From NCBI GenBank assembly GCA_039822905.1, contig JBCBMF010000001.1, forward strand, positions 1 to 62,883: DNA of 62,883 nt, written 5' to 3'. This DNA comes from Planctomycetota bacterium. Lineage in GTDB: Bacteria > Planctomycetota > Phycisphaerae > Phycisphaerales > UBA1924. The notes under the pieces are model-generated. The model was not told the DNA's origin. It saw nothing but the letters and a program-made list of their open reading frames with translations, and searched no databases. The position numbers and the translations under genes are program-made. Positions 23,007 through 35,275 of the stretch are shown here, in pieces. How positions within the stretch are numbered: the stretch's first letter is position 1; each line of letters starts with the position of its first letter.

Positions 23007-26000
23007 TCACGCCGCGGCCGCAGGCCGAGGTGTCGAAAGCACCGGATCAGGCTGCCGGCCCAAGAGCTGCCGCAACCCCCGGCTCATGTCGATCATCAGC
23101 CCGAGCATCAGCGGCACAAGCACCAGCGTAAACACGGTCGACACCAGCAACCCGCCCACAACAACCGACCCGAGCCCGCGATACATCTCGCTGCCCGCGC
23201 CCGGCACCAGCACCAACGGCAGCATGCCGCCCACCGACGTCATCGTGCTCATAAAGATCGGCCGCACCCGCGTCCGCACCGCCTGCGAGATCGCCTCGAC
23301 CGGCGTGAGGGCGTCAGCCTTGTCATCCGCCGACTCGCCGACCCCCTTCATGAAGTTCAGCGACTGATGCACAATCAAGATCGCGTTGTTCACCACGATG
23401 CCGACCAGGATCACGAAGCCCAGCATCGTTAGCACATCGAGCTGCTGCGTCGCGATCGTCGGGTCCGCGGCCGTCGTCGCATGCACGATCGCAAGCCCGC
23501 CGAACCCGCCGACCACCGCCAGCGGCACGGTCAGCATGATCACGAACGGGTACATGAAGCTCTCAAACAGCGCCGCCATCAGCAGGTACGTCACCATCAG
23601 CGCCCACACAAACCGTGCCGTCGACAGCTGCGGCTGATCCGCCGCCAGGAACAGCACGCCGCCGATGATCGAGAGCAGCAGCAGCGCGCCGACGCCGCCG
23701 TAGCCGAACGCAAGCCTGCCCCCGCCGATTGCACGGGCAAAACCGAAAACCGCGAACCCGATGCCGACCAACGCGATGCCCACGCCGATGATTTTCACCG
23801 GCCCGGCGAGCGACGACTCGGTCTCCTCGCCCGGCACAGCCTTGCCGAACAGCGCCGCCTGCACCTCGTCGAGCTTCGCCGCCGTTCCTTCGAGCCGCAC
23901 ACGCATCGTGCGATCGATCAGTCCCTGGTCCCGCGCGGGCTGGATAAACTTCGCATCCACATCCGCGATCACGTCCTGCACCGCCATCCCAGGCGGCGGA
24001 GAGATCAGCAGCTTCACCGCCGGCAGCTCCTCGATCCGCTGGATCGACTGCGGCGCCGTCGTCCGCGTCACCGTCACCAGCGTGTCGAGCGGCACAACAG
24101 GCCCCGCCGGCGTCGCCACCGGGATCTCCGCCATGCTCTCGATGTAGTCCAGCTCGCCGCCGTCGGGCACGACGACCATGTCCACCGCCTCACCGCCGAG
24201 CCGGAAGTCATCGACAAACGCGCCGTCGAACAAGCCTCGCACGACCGTACCCACCGCGGCTGTGCTCAGCCCCATCTCACGCGCCGGCGACGTCAGCTCC
24301 GCCTGAATCTCGGGTTGACCAAGGTTGAAGTTGCCCGGGTCGGGCCGAACGCGCCCGGGCCCGTACGCCTCATCGCCGAAAGCCGCCATCATGATCGACT
24401 CGGCCGCCGCGACCACGCGATCGAGCTCGGGCCCCATGATCTCGATGTTCACCGTGTTGCCGCCGCCGACACCCCGGCCGAACAGCGACGACTGCTGTGC
24501 ACCGCCGAACGTATCGGGCAGCGTGTTCATCGCGTTGGTCAGCAGCTGACCGACCGGGATGACCACCTGGTCGTCGCCGCTCACCGCGCCGGCGAACATG
24601 CCGCCGCCAAAGGCACCAATGAAAAAGTTCTGCACCGGCACCGGCTCATAGCTCGGCCCGCCCGGCCCACCAAACCCGATCGGGATCTCAGGCAATTCCG
24701 CGATGTCGCGGTCCTCCGCCTCGAGCACGTGCTCCATGTACGGCAGAACCTGATCCTCAATTCGATTCGCAAATTCCGTCATCTCATCCACGCTCATCCC
24801 CGGAGGAATGAGCATGCCGCCGAACACAAGGTTCCGGTTGCCCGCCGGCAGGTAATCAAGAGGCGGCGCAAGCGTGAGCGCACCGAAGATGCTCAGCCCC
24901 GCCATCACCACGATCACCAGAGGCCGAAGCGTCCACCCCAGCACGCCTCGCTGGATCACACCCAGCAGCGAGCCGAACCCTGCAACCACTTTGCCGAGCA
25001 GCGTGCCGAGACCAAACAGGTCCTGCCACGCCGCCCGCAGCGGGCCGACGCGCTCACGCTTGGGCTTCAGCCACCGCGAGCACGCCGCAGGGATCACCGT
25101 AATCGAGACCACGAGCGACAGCACGACCGACGCCACGATCGCGATCGCGATGTCGCGGAACAGCTGCCCCGCTTCTTCCTCGATCGTCAGCACCGGGATG
25201 AACACCGCCACGGTCGTCAGCGTCGACGCGAGGATCGCGCCCCAGACTTCCCTGCCACCCCGGTACGCCGCCTGCATGGGCGGGTCGCCCTCCTGCACGC
25301 GCCGGTAGATGTTCTCGAGCACAACGATCGCGTTATCGACAACCATCCCAACCGCGAACGCCAGCCCCGCGAGCGACACCACGTTCAGCGTCCGCCCGAG
25401 CCCCAGCATCACCAGGAACGTCCCCACGACCGAGATCGGGATCGCGAGCGCGACAACGCCGGTCGTGACCAGCGACCGCAGGAACAGCAGCAGCACGAAC
25501 GCCGCGATCGCGCCGCCGATGTACAAGTTCTGCGTCACCAGCTCGATCGAGCTATCGATGTAGATCGTCTCGTCGTACACCTGCCGCATCCGCAGGTCCG
25601 GGCCGGCCGTCGGGTGCAGCGTGGGCAGGATTTCCGCGCGCACCTCGTCGAGCCGCAGCTTCAGCTCGTCCATCACCTCGACAACGTTCGCGCCCGACTG
25701 CCGGATGCAGTTCATCGCAATCGAGGGATTGCCAAACGCCCGCACAAACCCCCGCTTCTTCTGATGCCCGAACTCGACCTCGGCAACATCCCGCACATAC
25801 ACGGGCCGACCCTCGCGGTACGCGACCACCGTCGAGAGCACGTCCTCTTCCGTCTCGAACTGGCCCACGACGCGCACGCGGTAGTCCCGCTTGCCCTCGG
25901 CCAGCGACCCCGCGCTCACGTTGGTGTTCTCACCGCGCAGCGCCGCGATCACATCGCCGATGTTCAGCTGCCGCAGTGCGAGCGCCTCGTTGTCCGCCAT

Positions 26001-26582
26001 CACGCGGACCTCGCGCTCCCGACCGCCGAAGATGTTGATCTCCGCCACGCCATCGATCCGCTCCAAGAACGGCTTGACCTCCTTGTCGAGCCGATCAAAC
26101 AGCGTCGTGATGTCAAAGTCCGGGTGCCGGGATGCGACCTCGGGATCGAGGTCGATGATGATCCACGCGATCGCGTTCTCGCTCGCGCCGTCCGCCGCCT
26201 TGATCGTCGGCTCATCGACCTCGTCCGGGTAGTCCGGCACCTGCCGCAGCGCGTCGCTCGTCTCCTGCAGCGCCCGACTCACATCCGTGCCGATGTAAAA
26301 CTCGAGCGAGATCGTGCTCTGCCCCTCGCTCGACACCGAGGTCATCGTCTTGAGGTTTGCGACGTTCTTGAGCCGCTCCTCCTGCTCCTTCGTGATCTCG
26401 TCGACGATCTCCTGCGGGCTCCGGCCGGGCCACTCGGTCTCGACCGTGATCTCGGGGCGGTCAACCGTGGGCGTCAGCTGCACGGGGATCGCCGTCAGCC
26501 CGATCAGGCCGAACATCACGAGCAGCAGCACACCGACCGTCACCCCGACCGGCTTCGAGATCGCCAGCTTGACAATATCCAT
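23007..26582 (-). CDS. RND-family efflux transporter permease (AcrB/HAE-type)
   Basis: 1191 aa. 12-TM RND layout with conserved blocks LAGLAFAVGMVVDNAIVVLENIYRR and GFVILVGIVVNNAILIVH. Confidence 0.93.
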   Translation of the reverse strand: MDIVKLAISKPVGVTVGVLLLVMFGLIGLTAIPVQLTPTVDRPEITVETEWPGRSPQEIVDEITKEQEERLKNVANLKTMTSVSSEGQSTISLEFYIGTDVSRALQETSDALRQVPDYPDEVDEPTIKAADGASENAIAWIIIDLDPEVASRHPDFDITTLFDRLDKEVKPFLERIDGVAEINIFGGREREVRVMADNEALALRQLNIGDVIAALRGENTNVSAGSLAEGKRDYRVRVVGQFETEEDVLSTVVAYREGRPVYVRDVAEVEFGHQKKRGFVRAFGNPSIAMNCIRQSGANVVEVMDELKLRLDEVRAEILPTLHPTAGPDLRMRQVYDETIYIDSSIELVTQNLYIGGAIAAFVLLLFLRSLVTTGVVALAIPISVVGTFLVMLGLGRTLNVVSLAGLAFAVGMVVDNAIVVLENIYRRVQEGDPPMQAAYRGGREVWGAILASTLTTVAVFIPVLTIEEEAGQLFRDIAIAIVASVVLSLVVSITVIPAACSRWLKPKRERVGPLRAAWQDLFGLGTLLGKVVAGFGSLLGVIQRGVLGWTLRPLVIVVMAGLSIFGALTLAPPLDYLPAGNRNLVFGGMLIPPGMSVDEMTEFANRIEDQVLPYMEHVLEAEDRDIAELPEIPIGFGGPGGPSYEPVPVQNFFIGAFGGGMFAGAVSGDDQVVIPVGQLLTNAMNTLPDTFGGAQQSSLFGRGVGGGNTVNIEIMGPELDRVVAAAESIMMAAFGDEAYGPGRVRPDPGNFNLGQPEIQAELTSPAREMGLSTAAVGTVVRGLFDGAFVDDFRLGGEAVDMVVVPDGGELDYIESMAEIPVATPAGPVVPLDTLVTVTRTTAPQSIQRIEELPAVKLLISPPPGMAVQDVIADVDAKFIQPARDQGLIDRTMRVRLEGTAAKLDEVQAALFGKAVPGEETESSLAGPVKIIGVGIALVGIGFAVFGFARAIGGGRLAFGYGGVGALLLLSIIGGVLFLAADQPQLSTARFVWALMVTYLLMAALFESFMYPFVIMLTVPLAVVGGFGGLAIVHATTAADPTIATQQLDVLTMLGFVILVGIVVNNAILIVHQSLNFMKGVGESADDKADALTPVEAISQAVRTRVRPIFMSTMTSVGGMLPLVLVPGAGSEMYRGLGSVVVGGLLVSTVFTLVLVPLMLGLMIDMSRGLRQLLGRQPDPVLSTPRPAAAA

Positions 26583-26585
26583 GGC

Positions 26586-27764
26586 TCAGCCCTCTCCCCG
26601 CTCGCCGCTCGCGTCCGCCCGCGGGGCCGCCGCCTCATCCGCGGGACCATCCAGCACGATCAATGGCTGCATCGGGAACATCCGCTCGTTGCCCTCGATC
26701 ACCACCCGAGCGCCCTCGCTCAGCCCGCCCGGCCGAATGGCAACTCTGTCCCCGACCGCAAACAACCGGCTGATCTGCATCGGCATACCGACCTGCCCTT
26801 CACCGAACGGGTTCGGCCCCGCGGTGTACACGAACTCCCCAGCGTCATTTCTCAGGATCGCGTCCTTGTGCACCGTCAGCGTCGCCTCCGCCGCGCCCGT
26901 CGGCACCTCAGCCACAACGCTCATGCCGGGCTGGAGCAGCGCACCGTCACCCACCCGGATTCGCACCGGGAACAGCCGGCTCAGCGGGTCGGCGCTCGGC
27001 ACCACCTGAATGATCTCGCCGCTGATCGACGCGTCCGCCGCCGCAACGATCACCCGCACCGGCGGCGTCTCACCCGACCCCGCCGTCATCACCCGTCCGA
27101 TCAGCCGCTCCGGAACATCGATCCACGCCTCGATCGAGCCGGCGTCGTACATCTCAAGCACCACGCCGCCCTCGCCCACCCACTGACCGACCTCCGTCGC
27201 AAGCTCAACAACACGCCCATCGAACGGCGCGACAACCTCCATATCCCGAAGCCGCTTCTTCAGCACATCCACGGCCCGCGCAGCCGTCTCCACATCCGCC
27301 TGCGCCCGCTGCAACCGCGCGCGGGCCGCGGCATCCTCAAGCATCGCGTCATCCAGCTCCTGCGCACTCGCCGACGCCTCATCCCGAAGCCTTTGCACAC
27401 GCCCGAGCTCCTTGCCCGCCCGCTGCGCCAGCGCCTCTCGCTCCTCGACCGTCGCCTCGAGCGCCGTCAGCTCCGCCTCCTGCCGCGCAAGCTCGAGCTC
27501 GACGATCTCCGAGTCCAGCTGCGCGATCACCGTCCCGGCCTCGACCGCGTCGCCCTCCTGCACATCCAGCACCAAGACGAGCCCCTCGGCCTGCGTCGCC
27601 AGCCGCGACCGCCGCTGCGCCCGCAGCTCGCCCGTGACCCGCCGCATCTGCTCGACCGTCTCCAGCCGCACCGCGTCCAGCCGCACCTTCGCCGGCGGCG
27701 GCCCGTCCTGCGCAGCCGCCCCAACACCCAACGCCGCGATCAGCACCGCAATTAGCCTTCGCAC
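26586..27764 (-). CDS. RND efflux periplasmic adaptor (membrane fusion protein)
   Basis: GTG start and a signal peptide. Biotinyl-lipoyl-like hairpin (GDAVEAGTVIAQLD), a long coiled-coil and beta-barrel segments. Lies 3 nt upstream of the RND gene. Confidence 0.88.
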   Translation of the reverse strand: MRRLIAVLIAALGVGAAAQDGPPPAKVRLDAVRLETVEQMRRVTGELRAQRRSRLATQAEGLVLVLDVQEGDAVEAGTVIAQLDSEIVELELARQEAELTALEATVEEREALAQRAGKELGRVQRLRDEASASAQELDDAMLEDAAARARLQRAQADVETAARAVDVLKKRLRDMEVVAPFDGRVVELATEVGQWVGEGGVVLEMYDAGSIEAWIDVPERLIGRVMTAGSGETPPVRVIVAAADASISGEIIQVVPSADPLSRLFPVRIRVGDGALLQPGMSVVAEVPTGAAEATLTVHKDAILRNDAGEFVYTAGPNPFGEGQVGMPMQISRLFAVGDRVAIRPGGLSEGARVVIEGNERMFPMQPLIVLDGPADEAAAPRADASGERGEG

Positions 27765-28267
27765 CGGTTCATCTCCCGCTCGAATCCGTTCACGTTGTCG
27801 ATCAGCCGCGCGAGATCGCCCTCGATCCGCGACACCTCGCCCCCGCTCATGCCCCGCAGCATCCCTGCCTCGAACCGCTCGGCCAGCTCTTCCGTCGCCT
27901 CCAGCGCCGCCCGACCCACCCCCGTAAGCGAGACGAACACCGCGCGGCCGTGCCCAGGCCGAGTCGACCGCGTCAGCAGCCCCTCGCCTTCCATCGCCGC
28001 CAGCATCCGGCTCACCGCCTGCGCACTCAGCAGCGCCGACTCGCTCAGCGCCGAAACCGTGGGCGACTCCCCCGCTGCCTCGGCCTCACCGATCGCACAC
28101 AAGAGCAGCCACCGGCTCGACGTCAGCCCGATCTCTGCCGACAGCCGATCGCCCACGCGCATGATCATGTTGTGGAGCACGAACACATTTCGAACAAGAC
28201 ACGCCTCCCGGCCCTCGGGCTCGGGCGGCTGTGCATCACCACTCAGGCTGTGCGTCTCGCGCGACAT
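27752..28267 (-). CDS. MarR-family transcriptional regulator
   Basis: 171 aa. Winged-helix core LTSSRWLLLCAI...TVSALSESALLSAQAVSRMLAAMEGEGLLTR. Overlaps the MFP start by 13 nt. Confidence 0.85.
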   Translation of the reverse strand: MSRETHSLSGDAQPPEPEGREACLVRNVFVLHNMIMRVGDRLSAEIGLTSSRWLLLCAIGEAEAAGESPTVSALSESALLSAQAVSRMLAAMEGEGLLTRSTRPGHGRAVFVSLTGVGRAALEATEELAERFEAGMLRGMSGGEVSRIEGDLARLIDNVNGFEREMNRCEG

Positions 28268-28297: not shown

Positions 28298-28332
28298 TCA
28301 ACATGTTGAATAACTATCTCAACGTGTTGAAT
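28298..28332. promoter_or_regulatory. two tandem palindromic operator-like sites in the marR / TPPII-homologue divergent intergenic region
   Basis: TCAACATGTTGAAT (28298-28311, with a perfect 12-bp palindrome TCAACATGTTGA) and TCAACGTGTTGAAT (28319-28332). They are 21 bp apart, AT-rich in a GC-rich genome, and 31-65 nt upstream of the marR ATG. Confidence 0.6.
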
Positions 28333-28430
28333 CGAGTCTTCGAACGTGCCCTCGGTCTCGGTTGCAGCAATCCACTGAGAAACCGGTACCATTCGCACCG
28401 TCATTCTGACGCCATTCTGGAGTTCGCAAC

Positions 28431-31400
28431 ATGACCGCACGCCTCGCCGCCCCGCTGCTGCCGTTCATCCTCGCCGCCGGCTGTGCCTCGGCACCAACCA
28501 CAGAATCGACCGCCGAACCGACAGCGCAGAGCACACAACCGAACCAAGCCGCCGCGGTCGCCAACCAACCCAACGCGACGCTCGCGGCACTCCCCGCCTC
28601 GATCGAAGCCCAGCCCGACAACGCCTTCGCCGACGCCCTCCAGCCCAAGACCGAGACCGGCGTCGACCGCTTCCTCCAGCAGTTCCCCGAGGCCGACGGC
28701 CGAGGCGTAGTGGTCGCCATCTTCGACACCGGTGTCGACCCCGCGGCACCCGGCATGCAGGTCACGACCGACGGCAAGCCCAAGATCATCGACCTCGTCG
28801 ACGCCTCGGGCTCAGGAGACGTCGACACCTCCACCGTCGCAGAGCTCAACGACGACGGCACCGTCACGGGCCTCTCGGGACGCACTCTCACACTCAACCC
28901 CGACTGGGCCAACCCGACGGGTGAAGTCCGCATCGGTCTCAAGCCCGCCACCGAGCTGTTCCCCCGGGGCCTCGTCGGCCGCGTTATGGGCGAGCGCTCC
29001 AAGGACCGCATGGAAGAACATCGCGCGCTCGTCGCGCAGGCCAAGCGTGCGCTCGCCGACTTCGACGCCGAGCACCCCGAGCCCACCGAAGACGAACTCG
29101 AAATCCGCGACGATCTCCAGAAGCGCCTCGACCTGCTTGCCGACATACCCGACACCATTGAAGACGCCGGCCCGATGTACGACTGCGTCGTCTGGCACGA
29201 CGGCGAGCACTGGCGCGCCGCCGTCGACACCGACGAAGACGGCGACCTGGCCGAAGAACTCGCCATGACCAACTTCCGCACCGAACGCGAGTTCGGCACC
29301 TTCGGCGACGAGGACCTGCTCAACTTCGCCGTCAACATCTACAACGAGGGTGACATCCTCTCGATCTTCACCGAAGCCGGCGCCCACGGCACACACGTCG
29401 CCGGCACCGTCGCCGCCCACTTCCCCGACCAGCCCGAACTCAACGGCATGGCCCCCGGCGCACAGATCGTCGGCGTCAAGATCGGCGACACCCGACTTGG
29501 CTCGTCCTCGGTCAACACCGGACTCGTCCGAGGCATCATCGCCGTCATCGAGAACGACGCCGACATGATCAACATGTCCTACGGCGGCCCCGGCGCGTTC
29601 CCCGACACCCGCTTCCGCGTCGACCAGCTCGCCGCCGAGGTCGTCAACGAGCACAACGTCGTCTTCGTTTCGTCAGCAGGCAACTCGGGCCCGGCGCTCA
29701 GCACCGTCGGCTCGCCCGGTGGCAGCACCGGCGCGATCATCGGTGTGGGCGCAGCCATCTCCGCCCAGATGATGGAAGCCCAATACGCCGTCCGTGAGGG
29801 CTGGGGCGACCTGCAGTACCCCTGGTCCAGCCGAGGCCCCACGCTCGACGGCGATCTGGGCGTCGACATCTCCGCACCCGGCGGCGCCATCAGCCCCGTC
29901 CCCAGCTGGACACTCAACAAGCACCAGCTCATGAACGGCACCAGCATGTCGTCGCCCAACGCCTGCGGCGGCATCGCGCTCATCCTCAGCAAGCTCAAGC
30001 AGGAAGACATCGCCACTCACCCCGCCGCCATCAAGCGCGCCGTCACCGAGACCGCCGTCCCCCTGCCGGGCCAGTCCCCCTGGGCCAACGGCGCGGGCAT
30101 GCTGCAGGTCGACGCCGCCTACGAGCACCTCGTCAACTACCACGACGACCGCTACACCGACGTCACCTTCCACGCCCGCGGCCCGGGCAACACCCGCGGC
30201 ATCTACCTCCGCGAGCCCTACGAGACCGACGAGCCCAGCGAGATCAGCGTCAGCTTCCGCCCCGAATGGCTCGACGACGCCGACAACCGCCGCAAGACCG
30301 ACTTCGACATGCGCCTCGCAATCGAGGCCACCGAGCCGTGGATCGAAACCGCAAGCAGCCACACCCTCAACGCCGCGGGGCGAAACACAACCGTCCGCGT
30401 CGACCCGACCGACCTCGAGCCCGGTGCGCACTTCGCCAAGATCCTCGCCTTCGACGACGCCCACCCCGAACGCGGGCCGATGTTCACCTTCCCCGTCACA
30501 GTCATCAAGGGCATCGAGCTCTCCGAAGACGACGGCTACACCTACCGCGAGACCATCACCACAAGCAACGGCGACCTCTTCAAGCGCTTCTTTCACGCCC
30601 CCGAGGGCGCGACCTGGATGGACGTCATCATCGAGCGCCTCGATTCAGACACCAGCCGCACGCTTGTGTGCCACATGACCCAGCTCCGCGAAGAAGAAGC
30701 CTTCACCGCGCACAACAGCCGGAGCTGGCTCACCTTCGACGACGACGACTTCCAGACGCGCTCGATGCGCGTCGACGGCGGCCGAACCGTCGAGCTCGCG
30801 CTCGCGCAGAACTGGTCCAGCCTCGGCGAGGGCGAGTTCGATGTCACCGTCCGCTTCCGCGGCGTCCGCCCCGAGCCCTCGATGGTCATGATCGACGGGG
30901 CTGACTACGTCACCCCCATGAACATCAGCAGCCCGCTCCGCGACGCCAACGTCCGCCCCAGCGGCTCGTTCACCGGACTCCGCCGGAGCATCCGACCGAC
31001 CGACTGGACCATCTCCGCCCTCGACTCCAAGCGTGACATGCTCCCCGAAGGCCGGCAGACCTACGAGATCGTCCTCGAGTACGACCTCTCCATGAGCGAA
31101 GACGGCACCGTCCGCATCGACCCCGCCGCCAGCGCCGTCCCCCACTTCTGGGACGAGTTCGAGTCCAGCCTCTGGCGCATCTACGACACGTACAACAAGG
31201 CCGTCGTCACCAGCGCCGGCGGGAGCGAAGACGTCGAGCTCGACGAGGGCGACTACACCGTCGAGTTCCACGTCCGCCACCACGACCCCGACATGCTCAT
31301 CAAGCTGGAGAACTCCTCGCTCATCCTGACGCACGAGATCAAGAGCGTCGGCATCAAGGTCGCCCGCTCGCCCGACGCCGCCCTCAACGGCTCGGGCAAT

Positions 31401-32432
31401 TTCGGCACCCGCGAGCTCGACCGAGGCCAGACCGTCCGCGCCTACATCGCCACGCCCACCGACCTGCCCGATCTCGCCGAGACGGGCGACGTCCTGCTCG
31501 GCTCAATGTCCTTCGGTGCAGCCACCGATATGGGCGGCGCGTCCTCCCGCCCCGGCGGCTGGCCCGTCGCCATGCGCGTTGCTGCCAAAGCCAACGACAA
31601 GCCCGAGATCGAAGCCAAGGACGACGATGCCGACGACAACGGCGACGAGCCGACCCGCACCGAGGAGCTCGCCGACGAGATCACCGACCTCAAGATCGCC
31701 GCGCTCAACGACCTCATGGCCGCCGACGAAGCCGACGAGTTCGAAGCCCTCGCCGCCGAGCTCATGGCCGACGCCGACAACGAGCTCGACGTCCTGCTCG
31801 CCCGCATGCACCGTGCCGATGCGCTCGCCGAATCAGCGAGTGACGACGCCGAGGCTGAGGCCGAAGAGGCCAACGAAGAAGGCGAAGCCGTCGACGCCGA
31901 GCCCGCCGGGGAAGCGGAGCCGGCACCTGAGCCCGTCACGGCTGACGATGTCATCGCCGCCGCGCAGGCCGTCATCGCCGCGATCGATACCGACGCCCTC
32001 GCCGCCTACAACGGCGTCAAGCACGACGAGGACGCCGACGACTTCAACGAGGACCTCGCCGACGAGATGGCCAAGCAGAAGAACGCCCTTACCGAGGCCC
32101 TCACGCTCATCGTCATGACCAGGACCGACATGCTCGAAAACGAATCGGGCGAGGTCGGCGTTGAAGCCGTCGAAGACGCCATCGCCGACCTCGAACGCTG
32201 GGGCTCGCTCGATGACGACGACCAGGGCACGGTCGACATGGCACTCGCCAAGGCCGAGGGTCGGCTCGGTGACGCACTCGCCATGATCAACGCCAAGATC
32301 GACGACGAGCCCACCCGCGATCTGCGCGAGCAGCGCATCGAGCTGCTCGAAGAGCTCGGCTGGACCGTCTGGGCCAACCTCGAACGCGACCGCCTCATCG
32401 GCGACATGCCCAAGTTCGACCCGGTCTTCTAA
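28431..32432 (+). CDS. tripeptidyl-peptidase II-like S8 subtilase with lipoprotein signal peptide
   Basis: 1333 aa. Lipobox LAAGC at aa 14-18. [59 protein letters not shown] and [20 protein letters not shown]. The Asp99-His319-Ser505 spacing matches that of eukaryotic TPPII. Similarity continues to the C-terminal ...LLEELGWT...DPVF. Confidence 0.9.
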   Translation: [1333 protein letters not shown]

Positions 32433-32458: not shown

Positions 32459-32497
32459 AGCGGGGCCCGGCATCGACCGGGCCCCGCTTTCATTTCA
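32459..32497. terminator. bidirectional intrinsic terminator between convergent genes
   Basis: 12-bp GC stem AGCGGGGCCCGG / CCGGGCCCCGCT (32459-32470 / 32477-32488) with loop CATCGA. Followed by TTCATTTCAT on the plus strand and preceded by GAAAACGCA. Confidence 0.7.
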
Positions 32498-32517
32498 TGC
32501 TGTCAAGCCGTCCCGGC

Positions 32518-33315
32518 TCAGTAGTTCCACGTCAGCAGGATGAAGTAGTCCGTGTCGCTCCGCTGCACGCCGTTCGGATCGGTGTCGTACTGGTTCTCGA
32601 CGCCGATCTTCAGCGTCAGCGCGATCTCTGGATCGACCAGCATCTCCCACGTCGCCCGCGACTGGACACGCCAGTTGCGGATGTCGCCGAGATCAGGGAA
32701 TGCCTCCGCGCTCGCGTTGAACAACTGGTTCTCTGTGAGCTGGCGGCGGTACTCTGCGGCCAGCACACCCTCGGCCCGCCAGGCGTTGTCGCTGCCGCCG
32801 ATCTCACGCGTCGCACCCGCACCCGCGCGGGTCATGAACCGCTGCTTCTCGGTGTCGGTCCACACATAGCCCGGGCCGGCAAAGATCGACACCCGCGTGT
32901 CCCAGTCCTGGAACTCGTCGTAATCGAACTGACCGCTCGCGAACGCGAACCACTTCGAGCCCTCGAACTTCCAGTCGTTCCGCCCGATGACGCGGGCCTC
33001 GTTCTCGCTGATGCCGTCGTTGTCGGTCGCGTACGAGTACGTGCCAAGGAACGACGATCGCGTTTCTTTCGTGTCGCGCTCGCCGTTGATCTCGGCGCGG
33101 AAGTCGAACTGATCGGTGTTGCCCTCACTGCCGAACAGGCCCAGCGACACACCGCCGCTCCAGCCGTCGAGCAGGCTGTCCCACTGCGGCAGCTCCTCAC
33201 CCTCGGCCACGTCGGATTCCGGCGCCGGCGCAAGATGCTCGTCGACCTGCGCACCGCCCAAGCCGGCCGCGCCGACGAGCACCGAGGCCATACCAATCCG
33301 AACCAGGTCGTTCAT
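32518..33315 (-). CDS. DUF481-family outer-membrane beta-barrel protein (YdiY-like)
   Basis: The real start MNDLVRIGMASVLVGAAGLGGAQ is at the ATG at 33315. GGVSLGLFGSEGNTDQ..., alternating beta-strand pattern, and a C-terminal aromatic ...LLTWNY. Confidence 0.75.
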   Translation of the reverse strand: MNDLVRIGMASVLVGAAGLGGAQVDEHLAPAPESDVAEGEELPQWDSLLDGWSGGVSLGLFGSEGNTDQFDFRAEINGERDTKETRSSFLGTYSYATDNDGISENEARVIGRNDWKFEGSKWFAFASGQFDYDEFQDWDTRVSIFAGPGYVWTDTEKQRFMTRAGAGATREIGGSDNAWRAEGVLAAEYRRQLTENQLFNASAEAFPDLGDIRNWRVQSRATWEMLVDPEIALTLKIGVENQYDTDPNGVQRSDTDYFILLTWNY

Positions 33316-33355
33316 CGTGTCTTCCCCTTCGCGGGGAAGCACGAAAGCCGCCCCT

Positions 33356-34375
33356 TCAGAATCTCCAGAACAAATCAATCGACATGTCAAAGTCGTTGCG
33401 CTCGGGCCGACGACTCGGACGGGCATCATACCTGTTCTGCGCCGAAAGCCGCAAACCAAGCCCGGCCTCAGGTGCGATGTCGATGTCCCAATTCGCGCGC
33501 GAATCGAGCCGAAAACTCGACGGCTGCTCGATCTCGGGCCTGTAGTCGATGCGGAAGCCAACCTTCTGCGTATCCGTGAACCGGTGCTCGCCGATCAAGA
33601 AGATCGCGCCCTCCGGCACGAAGTCCTCATCGCCCCCACCAAATTCACGCCGCACACTCGCAGCGAGATTGAACCGTATGTTCGTCTTGTCGTTCTTGAC
33701 CCACTGATAGTTCGGCCCAGTCGACACCGCGATCCGGTAGTCGTAATCCTGGAACCGATCCGCATCCCCATCAACCTGCACGAACACGCTGTTCCACTTC
33801 GTCCCGCCCGTCGACCAGTTCTGCCGAAACCGCGACACGAGCCGGTTCTCCGATTCGCCCGCGTTGTTGTTCGCGACGATGTACTCGGTAAACAGCCGCG
33901 TCTCGTGGCCCCAGTACTTCTTGTTGATGTTGAACCCACCCCGGAACCGCGTGCGGTCGTTGTTCCCGCTCGCGAGCTCGAAGCCGAACCGCAGCTCACC
34001 CTTCCAGTCCGCGATGATCGACCGCACGATGCTCGGCTTGGGCGGCGCCTCAGGCCCCGCCTGCTCCGCGGCCGCCGCGTTCTCATTCGGGTTCGGGCCC
34101 TCGGGCTGCTCAGCCGCCGCCCCCGCAACAGCAACCGCCGCCCCCTCAACACCCGCCGCGGGCGGCGCAGCCGCTACCACGGTGTCCGGTCGAAATTCGG
34201 GGTCGAACCACCGGTTGCTCGATTCGAACGACCCGCCGCCGCCGACGTCGGCACCCGTTCCCGAGACGTCCAGCAGCCGTTCACGCACCGAAAGCCCAGC
34301 GTCCGCCGACGCCATCGCCACACCCGCGCCGAGCCAAACGCCCGTCGCCGCTGCTCCAGCACATATCCGAAACAC
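33356..34375 (-). CDS. DUF481-family outer-membrane beta-barrel protein, tandem paralogue with a long low-complexity N-terminus
   Basis: WKGELRFGFELASGNNDR..., FRQNWSTGGTKW, and C-terminal ...SIDLFWRF. Signal-like N-terminus followed by an Ala/Pro/Glu linker. Confidence 0.72.
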   Translation of the reverse strand: MFRICAGAAATGVWLGAGVAMASADAGLSVRERLLDVSGTGADVGGGGSFESSNRWFDPEFRPDTVVAAAPPAAGVEGAAVAVAGAAAEQPEGPNPNENAAAAEQAGPEAPPKPSIVRSIIADWKGELRFGFELASGNNDRTRFRGGFNINKKYWGHETRLFTEYIVANNNAGESENRLVSRFRQNWSTGGTKWNSVFVQVDGDADRFQDYDYRIAVSTGPNYQWVKNDKTNIRFNLAASVRREFGGGDEDFVPEGAIFLIGEHRFTDTQKVGFRIDYRPEIEQPSSFRLDSRANWDIDIAPEAGLGLRLSAQNRYDARPSRRPERNDFDMSIDLFWRF

Positions 34376-34543
34376 AACTTCTCCGTCGGACTCCAGATAC
34401 CATACAGCGAGCCCGCCCCCACTCCATCGGTTCTCGGAAGGGTCGGCAGAGAAACATGTTGCGGTTTACGCCCGGAAACTCGGGCTCTCCCGACACACAA
34501 GCGCTGGACCGGCGGAGCCGTCCAGTCCGATGACAGGCAAGAC

Positions 34544-35275
34544 ATGGACGCGAACCAACACCACCGAAGCCTGACCCGACGATCAATCCTCCTTTCGGGC
34601 CTCGGCTCCGCCGCCGCCATCGCCGCGGGCTGCTCGACCAGCTCCGCACCCCGGCGGGCCTCAAACCTGCCAGGCCCCGTCTGGCCCCACGAGCGCACGC
34701 CCGCACCAAGCACCAGCGATCGGCCTCAGGCCGCCCGCGCCCAGCTCGGCCGCGTCCGCGTTGTCGCCAGGTCCAACTGGACCTCGGCCGAGCCCAAAGC
34801 CTGGGAAGCCAAGCCCCTCAACGGCGTCGCACGCATCACCGTCCACCACGACGGCATGGACCCCGTCCGCCTCAACTCACCCGCCGAGGTCGCCGACCGG
34901 CTCGAGCTCATCCGCCAAGTCCACGTCGAGAACAACGGCTGGGCCGACATCGGCTACCACTTCGCCGTCGACCCCCAGGGTCGCGTCTGGGCCACACGCC
35001 CCCTTAACCTCCAGGGCGCCCACGTCAAGAACGAGAACGAGCACAACATGGGCATCCTCGTGCTCGGCAACTTCGAGATGCAATCGCCCACGCCCGCCGC
35101 GATGACCGCGCTCGACTCGCTGCTGGTCGAAGCCGCCATGGTCAACCGCGTGCCGCTGGCCAACATCCGCACCCACCGCGAGTGGAACCCCACCGCGTGC
35201 CCGGGCGCATCGCTCCAGCAGCACATGAACGTCGCACGCTCGCCGCGAGGCCGTGTCGCCGCCCGCGTCGCCTGA
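34544..35275 (+). CDS. N-acetylmuramoyl-L-alanine amidase (Amidase_2/PGRP fold) with Tat-type lipoprotein signal
   Basis: The start MDANQHHRSLTRRSILLSGLGSAAAIAAGC carries a twin-arginine motif and a lipobox. ITVHHDGM..., WADIGYHFAVDPQGRVW, GAHV...NMGILVLGNF, HREWNPTACPG. Confidence 0.85.
   Translation: MDANQHHRSLTRRSILLSGLGSAAAIAAGCSTSSAPRRASNLPGPVWPHERTPAPSTSDRPQAARAQLGRVRVVARSNWTSAEPKAWEAKPLNGVARITVHHDGMDPVRLNSPAEVADRLELIRQVHVENNGWADIGYHFAVDPQGRVWATRPLNLQGAHVKNENEHNMGILVLGNFEMQSPTPAAMTALDSLLVEAAMVNRVPLANIRTHREWNPTACPGASLQQHMNVARSPRGRVAARVA

Follow-up and report, generated by a model that had tools for sequence, protein, structure and literature searches.

To our knowledge, no eukaryotic peptidase complex is larger than that of tripeptidyl-peptidase II (TPPII), which assembles into a giant two-stranded spindle and is activated on assembly. 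Descriptions usually treat TPPII as a eukaryotic enzyme, two planctomycete exceptions aside. What kind of enzyme is encoded by a planctomycete gene that resembles TPPII along its length and starts with a lipoprotein signal? The gene in question lies in a stretch of 62,883 nucleotides (the window in what follows; positions 1 to 62,883 of the forward strand of contig JBCBMF010000001.1, assembly GCA_039822905.1) from a Planctomycetota bacterium (Phycisphaerales; UBA1924).

Gene, domain order and fold of the peptidase

The coding sequence (28431..32432 including the stop codon, + strand) specifies a TPPII-like S8 peptidase of 1333 aa, as indicated by the ORF listing and translation, a match to the Drosophila TPPII structure 3lxu and four Pfam domains, and the peptide strings quoted in the initial annotation are all found in this translation. 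Its GC by codon position (GC1/2/3 of 0.68/0.45/0.89) has the pattern of coding DNA in this 66% GC genome. A Shine-Dalgarno-like GGAG, read from the sequence, is located 8 nt 5' of the ATG (28419..28422, +), and the CTGGAG upstream of the start is retained in L001, L002 and L004, the loci closest to this one.

The S8 catalytic domain (aa 90-545; 28698..30065, +; Pfam PF00082 at 4.5e-47) carries the catalytic residues Asp99 (28725-28727), His319 (29385-29387) and Ser505 (29943-29945), at the positions named initially, along with the oxyanion Asn418 (29682-29684), all on the + strand and aligned with Drosophila D44, H272, S462 and N374, respectively. These columns are invariant across homologue clusters, barring column gaps and 5'-truncated gene calls. 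The offset of 55-56 residues to the human enzyme given in the initial annotation is correct, as the human triad has been placed at Asp44, His264 and Ser449 (PMC2933905). The TPPII-type insert of about 220 aa between Asp and His is present as well: the 220 residues between D99 and H319 are in continuous alignment with Drosophila 44-272 and are modelled at high confidence.

Similarity to TPPII is far stronger than chance would give and extends well beyond the S8 core. In a phmmer search of the PDB, query residues 68-971 match residues 13-943 of Drosophila TPPII (3lxu_X) with an E-value of 1.4e-173, whereas the runner-up, a subtilisin, matches residues 313-571 only (3.7e-16). Three further Pfam domains, each scoring above its gathering score, follow the catalytic domain on the + strand: TPPII_Ig-like-1 (aa 579-692; 30165..30506; PF21223 at 3.6e-27), the galactose-binding-like TPPII_GBD (aa 714-799; 30570..30827; PF21316 at 2e-11) and the TPPII domain (aa 835-1010; 30933..31460; PF12580 at 1e-33). 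Structure was predicted with AF2 as monomer models only, for aa 66-1010 and for the C-terminal 334 aa. The model of aa 66-1010 (pLDDT 92.5) has 3lxu as its best Foldseek match (E 5.3e-77, TMq 0.85, 979 columns), the runner-up reaching a TMq of 0.33.

The C-terminal all-helical, TPR-like domain (aa ~1041-1333; 31551..32429, +) aligns with all bacterial homologues, and its matches to the eukaryotic enzyme are weaker. By phmmer, the C-terminal 334 aa match 3lxu 1167-1318 weakly (E 0.011). The best PDB entry for their model (pLDDT 88.7) is again 3lxu (Foldseek probability 1.0, TMq 0.49, E 3.5e-3), with no PDB match to this model reaching the E 0.001 level in Foldseek. TPPII_C (PF12583) falls below threshold on the query and matches relatives at the aligned place. 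The helical domain is probably homologous to the C-terminal domain of TPPII, and the end-to-end collinearity with eukaryotic TPPII that had been proposed from the sequence is borne out by these searches and models, less strongly in this last domain than in the rest of the protein.

An acidic insertion had been described at aa 1010-1190. Only some 38 residues of it, rich in Asp, Glu and Ala and inserted in the helical domain (aa ~1133-1170; 31827..31940, +), are lineage-specific in the alignment, the remainder aligning with the linker and helical domain that all bacterial homologues conserve. Of the ten aligned sequences that were displayed, only the query and the representatives of clusters P0001 and P0003 have this insert. 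Asp and Glu make up 35% of aa 1125-1170, and in the model the insert prolongs a helix and then continues as coil.

Export signal and substrate-binding cleft

The peptidase begins, as initially described, with an extension made of a lipobox (LAAGC) and a Thr/Ala/Gln linker. Residues 1-17 form the lipoprotein signal peptide, followed by the lipobox Cys18 (L-A-A-G-C; 28431..28484, +); the call is rule-based, following the PROSITE-type pattern {DERK}(6)-[LIVMFWSTAG](2)-[LIVMFYSTAGCQ]-[AGS]-C, with Arg4 as the positive charge of the n-region, then a hydrophobic h-region and the Cys well inside the first ~35 residues. This signal must be translated because the ATG at 28431 is the only possible start: from the stop at 28407 as far as codon 94 the frame offers no other, which disposes of a true start downstream of the lipobox. 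The lipobox is retained in the close homologue clusters P0001-P0019 (at least 51% identical), the exception being P0016, whose called start cuts it. It is followed by a low-complexity tether (aa 19-66; 28485..28628, +; 73% Thr, Ala, Gln, Pro and Ser) that differs in length and sequence from homologue to homologue.

N-terminal signals are found in 115 of the 121 close homologues (37 with a lipobox, 78 of the signal-peptidase-I type), the other six being truncated or mis-started gene calls, and the named cluster representatives without a signal are eukaryotes (Peronospora, Dissophora and Protostelium). Virtually every bacterial member of the family bears an export signal that is absent from the eukaryotic ones. 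Judging from its sequence, the mature peptidase would be lipid-anchored, lipidation and cleavage both being predicted: the Sec pathway would export it, Lgt and LspA would process it at Gly17|Cys18, and a flexible linker of ~48 aa would tie it to a membrane, on the side of the periplasm or of the cell surface. The E. coli +2 lipoprotein sorting rule may not apply in Planctomycetes. For planctomycete biology, this suggests that the enlarged periplasm or the cell surface harbours a giant peptidase anchored by lipid.

In TPPII, two Glu residues on two substrate-binding strands hold the substrate by its free alpha-amino group and so confine the enzyme to removing tripeptides, a role reportedly documented in studies from 2008 and 2010. 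The initial claim that the compared stretches all match human TPPII overlooks this pair, where the main difference lies. In the MAFFT columns, Ser360 (29508..29510, +) takes the place of the first Glu (Drosophila Glu312, human Glu305) and Gly386 (29586..29588, +) that of the second (Drosophila Glu343, human Glu331), within a local motif, MSYGGP, that aligns with MSLGGP of subtilisin BPN'. The same residues are found at these columns in most of the 121 close homologues (Ser in 118, Gly in 112), and the double-Glu is invariant in all 36 bacterial cluster representatives of the E/E group and in all 63 eukaryotic ones. When 19 cluster representatives of the query's subfamily were compared with those 36 and 63, only three of 920 aligned positions proved to be fixed differently in the Ser/Gly subfamily, namely Drosophila 312, 343 and 311, the last being the residue just before the first Glu. 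Many relatives have a Glu four residues past the first double-Glu site ('GTGE'), which is absent from the query.

With both Glu replaced by Ser360 and Gly386, the cleft should be open at its S4 end. We predict that members of the Ser/Gly subfamily are endopeptidases, or cut in a different register, rather than strict tripeptide-releasing exopeptidases, while the substrate's N-terminus might be anchored by other residues. The substitution of both Glu has the appearance of a targeted functional change.

Family, gene neighbourhood and rival explanations

Among 8000 candidates scored, 2786 were TPPII family matches, and the family comprises 1042 clusters at 50% identity (E<=1e-30, bacterial and eukaryotic members counted together). 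The bacterial-type clusters examined are very numerous, and belong to Planctomycetota and Verrucomicrobiota where named. These counts do not fit the rarity of bacterial TPPII that was implied at the outset; some bacterial members have already been named 'tripeptidyl-peptidase-2' by JGI, and TPPII in Planctomycetes was reported by Rockel et al. in 2012, as cited in PMC6713707. TPPII in Planctomycetes being already known, a point added here is the Ser/Gly subfamily without the double-Glu. At the level of sequence, the comparisons bring out a bacterial family that is large, old and diverse, with two groups, one that keeps the double-Glu and one, including the query, that lacks it. As the bacterial E/E group also bears signal peptides, exported TPPII-type exopeptidases probably exist. 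Our literature search found no activity, localisation or oligomer data for bacterial TPPII members.

The reading that we consider probable is that of a giant subtilase that is exported and lipid-anchored, has the TPPII architecture in full and a Ser/Gly cleft, would not act as a strict tripeptide-releasing exopeptidase and would degrade proteins or oligopeptides, probably as a means of acquiring nutrients. It seems somewhat unlikely that the protein is instead a true TPPII moved to the periplasm, releasing tripeptides from free N-termini, possibly as large oligomers, and holding the substrate N-terminus by residues other than the double-Glu. The protein has every domain from which the eukaryotic complex is built and a fold that matches 3lxu at a TMq of 0.85, the query has in 'NEGDIL' the Gly matching human G252 (mutation of which reportedly disrupts TPPII assembly), and the related E/E group combines double-Glu and signal peptides; in the query, however, both Glu are replaced, the subfamily has no fixed changes of its own beyond these sites and the residue preceding the first, and the replacement recreates the endopeptidase motif of subtilisin. 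The family offers a natural experiment in the passage from an endopeptidase scaffold to a tripeptidyl exopeptidase, two point mutations apart for testing, and bacterial TPPII-like proteins provide tractable material for studying the assembly of giant complexes.

Running in the opposite direction from the peptidase gene is a marR-MFP-RND operon identified by Pfam (23007..28267, - strand), made up of marR (27752-28267), an MFP gene (26586-27764) and an RND pump gene (23007-26582). The 163-bp spacer between them contains two palindromic 14-mers, TCAACRTGTTGAAT, 21 bp apart (28298..28332), a putative MarR operator with 4 strand-matches vs 0.16 expected by chance. One or both copies are found in loci L001-L004 and L006, and a degenerate copy in L005. 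The divergent arrangement with an operator in the spacer, as initially described, holds at this locus, but the linkage is absent across the family: the arrangement and its palindromic operator occur only within a Phycisphaerales clade, the synteny being kept down to 50% peptidase identity and lost below.

MarR may co-regulate the peptidase gene from this shared spacer. That peptidase and efflux system act together under MarR through a common operator, for example against toxic peptides or envelope stress, is nevertheless distinctly unlikely. The divergent genes with their palindromes, the persistence of the arrangement even with different downstream genes and a similar operon 4.6 kb from the peptidase in L008 are consistent with such a partnership, but linkage is missing in L007, L009 and L010, the palindromes adjoin marR (31-65 bp) and lie 99-133 bp from the peptidase ATG, and a sigma-70-like promoter was looked for and not found. 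The linkage may be plain order-level synteny, since dxs and NAD kinase upstream are conserved too. That the peptidase gene was recently acquired from a eukaryote, or is eukaryotic DNA contaminating the assembly, is extremely improbable. Transfer of TPPII from eukaryotes to two Planctomycetes has been proposed (PMC6713707); the present gene, however, is like the rest of the window in GC content, GC3, skew and codon bias, carries a bacterial lipoprotein signal, has bacterial housekeeping genes (dxs, NAD kinase, iPGM and gcvP) and RND genes as neighbours, and has orthologues in the same context at six other loci. Moreover, the mean distance within bacterial members (~1.0) is similar to that within eukaryotic ones (1.06), and the two are set apart in the tree.

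The Ser/Gly form could also be ancestral, an exported open-cleft subtilase of the PVC group, with the double-Glu arising in bacteria and eukaryotic TPPII deriving from them by ancient transfer, a scenario that we regard as unlikely. If it were true, the signal peptide would have been lost on the way to the cytosolic eukaryotic enzyme, in a direction opposite to that of the published eukaryote-to-planctomycete proposal. The bacterial family allows the origin of eukaryotic TPPII to be reopened as a question.

Comparison with known TPPIIs and subtilisins

Eukaryotic TPPII (Drosophila 3LXU; human TPP2; MEROPS S08) resembles the query in its domain order, its Asp-His-Asn-Ser set, its ~200-aa Asp-His insert, its fold and, probably, its C-terminal helical domain, with ~35% identity over 940 aa. 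It is cytosolic, whereas the query starts with a lipoprotein signal and a tether, and it carries E312/E343 (fly) or E305/E331 (human) where the query has Ser360/Gly386. The query is further distinguished by the acidic insert of ~38 aa in its helical domain and by being very acidic overall (pI 4.27).

Two bacterial proteins were compared as well. The planctomycete 'tripeptidyl peptidase II' of Rubinisphaera brasiliensis (WP_013629220.1, 1272 aa), which is among the two TPPIIs from bacteria that the literature cites, has the architecture of the query and an N-terminal signal, but it keeps the double-Glu and branches outside the subfamily of the query in the tree; P0133, which represents its cluster, shares 43% identity with the query. 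The S8 peptidase of Blastopirellula sediminis (WP_230215761.1, P0131), named 'tripeptidyl-peptidase II' in UniRef and also 43% identical, belongs to the Ser/Gly subfamily and shares the architecture and a signal peptide with the query. Its signal is, however, of the signal-peptidase-I type, with no lipobox, and it is without the acidic insert. The classical S8A endopeptidases, subtilisins BPN' and Carlsberg, have the catalytic core of the query and its 'M-S-x-G-G-P' substrate-binding strand; unlike the query, they measure ~275 aa, are made with a propeptide and have neither the insert between Asp and His nor the ~800 residues at the C-terminus.

Architecture and export signal of the TPPII-like peptidase

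The open reading frame at 28431-32432 (+) encodes, by ORF listing and translation, a protein of 1333 aa, and its GC by codon position (0.68/0.45/0.89) is the coding signature of the other genes in this 66% GC window. Every peptide string cited by the initial annotation, which had described the product as collinear with TPPII over its full length, was found in this translation. When every PDB chain is searched with phmmer, the best match is Drosophila TPPII (3lxu_X, E 1.4e-173), query residues 68-971 aligning with 13-943 of the fly chain, and the next matches are ordinary subtilisins (E ~1e-16) limited to query aa 313-571. Pfam places four domains well over their gathering scores: Peptidase_S8 (aa 90-545), TPPII_Ig-like-1 (aa 579-692), TPPII_GBD (aa 714-799) and the TPPII domain (aa 835-1010). 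A MAFFT alignment that includes Drosophila TPPII and 120 homologues identifies D99, H319, N418 and S505 as the catalytic residues, so that the triad first proposed (D99/H319/S505) is correct; its human counterpart is Asp44/His264/Ser449 (PMC2933905). All of these residues are present, which rules out a pseudo-enzyme. The insert between the catalytic Asp and His, also claimed at the outset, comprises 220 query residues in unbroken alignment with that of the fly enzyme. The similarity therefore reaches well beyond the S8 core, as is shown by the phmmer span, the TPPII Pfam domains and the aligned insert. For aa 66-1010, the AlphaFold2 model (pLDDT 92.5, pTM 0.91) matches 3lxu with E 5.3e-77 and a TMq of 0.85 across 979 columns; the second-best entry has a TMq of 0.33.

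Pfam TPPII_C finds no match on the query C-terminus, even at E<=10. The last ~330 residues nonetheless align column for column with all bacterial homologues, some of which are matched by TPPII_C at the corresponding place, and 3lxu 1167-1318 is matched weakly in phmmer (E 0.011). The AlphaFold2 model of aa 1000-1333 is all-helical (pLDDT 88.7) and has 3lxu as its best PDB match (E 3.5e-3, probability 1.0, TMq 0.49, 316 columns). Although the TPPII_C threshold is missed, the C-terminus is thus probably homologous, given its alignment with relatives and its structural match, and collinearity with TPPII probably runs from end to end. One planctomycete homologue of 1404 aa (P0094) has extra TPR-repeat Pfam matches beside its TPPII domains, which hints that the C-terminal helical domain can be varied or extended.

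The "long acidic insertion" previously placed at aa 1010-1190 is acidic throughout (28% D+E), but it consists mostly of a conserved linker and the helical domain; the actual insert covers aa ~1133-1170 and is found in the query and the homologues P0001 and P0003 among the sequences displayed in the alignment. With a pI of 4.27 and a net charge of -144, the protein as a whole is very acidic. Most other window proteins among the genes sampled are acidic as well (pI 4.6-5.6), the peptidase being the extreme, and this acidity across the window suggests a marine or saline organism.

At the N-terminus, the ATG at 28431 is the first start codon past an in-frame stop at 28407, and a GGAG on the same (+) strand can be read 8 nt 5' of it. 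No other in-frame ATG, GTG or TTG occurs until codon 94, and the segment that aligns with fly TPPII from residue 13 onward begins at aa 68. A downstream start is ruled out, as this conserved segment needs to be translated and no start codon lies between codons 1 and 94; the lipobox, whose translation had been presumed, must therefore belong to the translated product. The first 18 aa satisfy a PROSITE-type lipoprotein rule (a rule-based call), and the 48-aa stretch after the lipobox is 73% T/A/Q/P/S. The lipobox is kept in the close homologue clusters (>=51% identity) with one exception, where the start of the gene call cuts it off. Signals in 121 close family members comprise 37 lipoboxes and 78 of the signal-peptidase-I type, the remaining 6 being truncated or mis-started gene calls.

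Genomic neighbourhood

The divergent MarR-RND arrangement noted initially is indeed present: upstream of the peptidase, the minus strand carries genes for MarR (27752-28267), a membrane-fusion protein (26586-27764) and an RND pump (23007-26582), and a spacer of 163 bp separates marR from the peptidase. This spacer carries two palindromic 14-mers, TCAACRTGTTGAAT, 21 bp apart (28298-28332, 31-65 bp upstream of marR), for which only 0.16 matches would be expected there by chance. Five homologous loci (L001-L004 and L006) retain one copy or both in the corresponding spacer and a sixth (L005) has a degenerate copy, and the palindromes are likely to be a MarR operator. A scan of the spacer for sigma-70 promoters found none, and a terminator scan returned nothing meaningful.

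The divergent arrangement is kept down to 50-53% peptidase identity (L005, L006), is shifted by 4.6 kb in L008 and is missing from the more distant loci L007, L009 and L010. Since the upstream genes for dxs and NAD kinase are likewise conserved, the simplest explanation is plain synteny inside the Phycisphaerales. That the gene is native to the chromosome is supported by its housekeeping neighbours (dxs, iPGM, gcvP) and by uniform composition. Among genome records, the nearest is a Planctomycetota MAG (JBCBHW010000001.1, 93% protein identity); the scan of genome contigs, made with a single protein query, gave four close loci of narrow taxonomic breadth.

Downstream and convergent lies a gene for a DUF481 outer-membrane-type protein (beta-barrel family; 32518-33561, minus strand, 6e-33). 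A 360-aa ORF at 32497-33579 (+) is the shadow of this gene, has no Pfam match and was rejected. The 719-aa ORF at 33116-35275 (+) is over-extended, Amidase_2 being confined to its last ~290 aa, which correspond to a gene of 243 aa in L005. At another locus (L009 1-5000, the context of homologue P0062), BMC, EutN/CcmL, aldehyde dehydrogenase and aldolase genes lie directly upstream of the TPPII-like gene; this microcompartment cluster is probably there by coincidence. GC skew is strongly negative in every 2-kb bin of the window (-0.08 to -0.26, mean ~-0.18) and AT skew is positive in most, a strand asymmetry unusually strong for a bacterial chromosome; both strands carry genes.

Family size and origin

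The query belongs to a large bacterial branch of the TPPII family. A word-indexed search in which 8000 candidates were scored yields at least 2786 proteins at E<=1e-10; the best 120 of these are nearly all full length, and those with names come from Planctomycetota, Phycisphaerales/Phycisphaerae and Verrucomicrobiota. They are called "S8 family serine peptidase" by NCBI and, for some, "tripeptidyl-peptidase-2" by JGI. When 1.84 billion cluster representatives were searched exhaustively with HMMER, aa 66-1010 matched 1042 clusters at E<=1e-30, bacterial and eukaryotic ones counted together. Citing Rockel, Kopec, Lupas and Baumeister (2012), PMC6713707 puts TPPII on record in a pair of Planctomycetes, Blastopirellula marina and Rubinisphaera brasiliensis, and proposes that it was transferred from eukaryotes. 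As these two cases are already published, a bacterial homologue of TPPII is not in itself new; the initial annotation was largely right in its interpretation and overstated the novelty, given the size of the family and the earlier report.

In a neighbour-joining tree of 145 cluster representatives (830 well-aligned columns), signal-bearing bacterial proteins fall opposite signal-less eukaryotic ones with a bootstrap value of only 54. The deep nodes are star-like with very short branches and show no direction of transfer. With two subtilisin sequences as outgroup (their key motifs agree with the PDB-search alignment), the root shifts among groups over 100 replicates, falling on the Ser/Gly type to which the query belongs (see below) in 43, on eukaryotes in 24 and on bacterial Glu/Glu proteins in 23. 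Mean distances inside the bacterial groups (0.86-1.05) are close to that inside eukaryotes (1.06); the bacterial family is accordingly old and diverse rather than recently imported.

The double-Glu sites and predicted specificity

In TPPII, the tripeptide register is set by a pair of glutamates, E312 and E343 in the fly and E305 and E331 in human. Located on two substrate-binding strands, they reportedly hold the free N-terminus of the substrate, in work attributed to Chuang et al. 2010 and Lindas et al. 2008. The corresponding columns of the query alignment hold Ser360 and Gly386, and the local motif MSYGGP is the counterpart of MSLGGP in subtilisin BPN'. Among 121 close homologues, the top matches of the family of at least 2786, 118 have Ser at the first site and 112 have Gly at the second. 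Eight homologues (P0029, P0031, P0045, P0057, P0059, P0069, P0079 and P0083) have a Ser/Glu intermediate with the distinctive motif NSCATGE, and P0098 alone among the 120 closest matches has both Glu.

Two types, Ser/Gly and Glu/Glu, are found among the 150 best cluster representatives (of 1042). Every full-length member of the former carries a signal peptide, and the latter is a mix of signal-bearing and signal-less proteins. Of the Glu/Glu proteins that have names, those with a signal come from bacteria (Rubinisphaera brasiliensis WP_013629220.1 and a soil metagenome protein labelled Verrucomicrobia) and those without one from eukaryotes (Peronospora, Dissophora, Protostelium and EukProt transcripts). 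The Ser/Gly type includes Blastopirellula sediminis WP_230215761.1. The main Ser/Gly clade (bootstrap 45) is placed among Glu/Glu bacterial lineages in the neighbour-joining tree, and a second Ser/Gly group, a small pair, lies apart from it. When 920 aligned positions were scanned for fixed differences between 19 subfamily, 36 bacterial and 63 eukaryotic representatives, only fly positions 311, 312 and 343 were fixed differently in the query's subfamily from both other groups; because nothing else emerged, the alignment marks the subfamily as set apart by the two Glu sites and the residue before the first, and by these alone.

With the start codon, architecture, intact catalytic set, lipobox-bearing signal and absence of the double-Glu established, we infer that the protein would be exported by Sec and then lipidated and cleaved at Cys18, its flexible linker tethering the enzyme on the periplasmic side or at the cell surface. 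There it could cleave proteins or oligopeptides as a serine protease, and since the S4 side of the cleft would be open, strict release of tripeptides would not be expected. The main rival, which we rate as less likely, is that the query does act as a true tripeptidyl exopeptidase and binds the substrate N-terminus by some means other than the two Glu that Ser360 and Gly386 replace. The protein differs from known TPPII at the two specificity-determining residues and, as its signal predicts, in its localisation.
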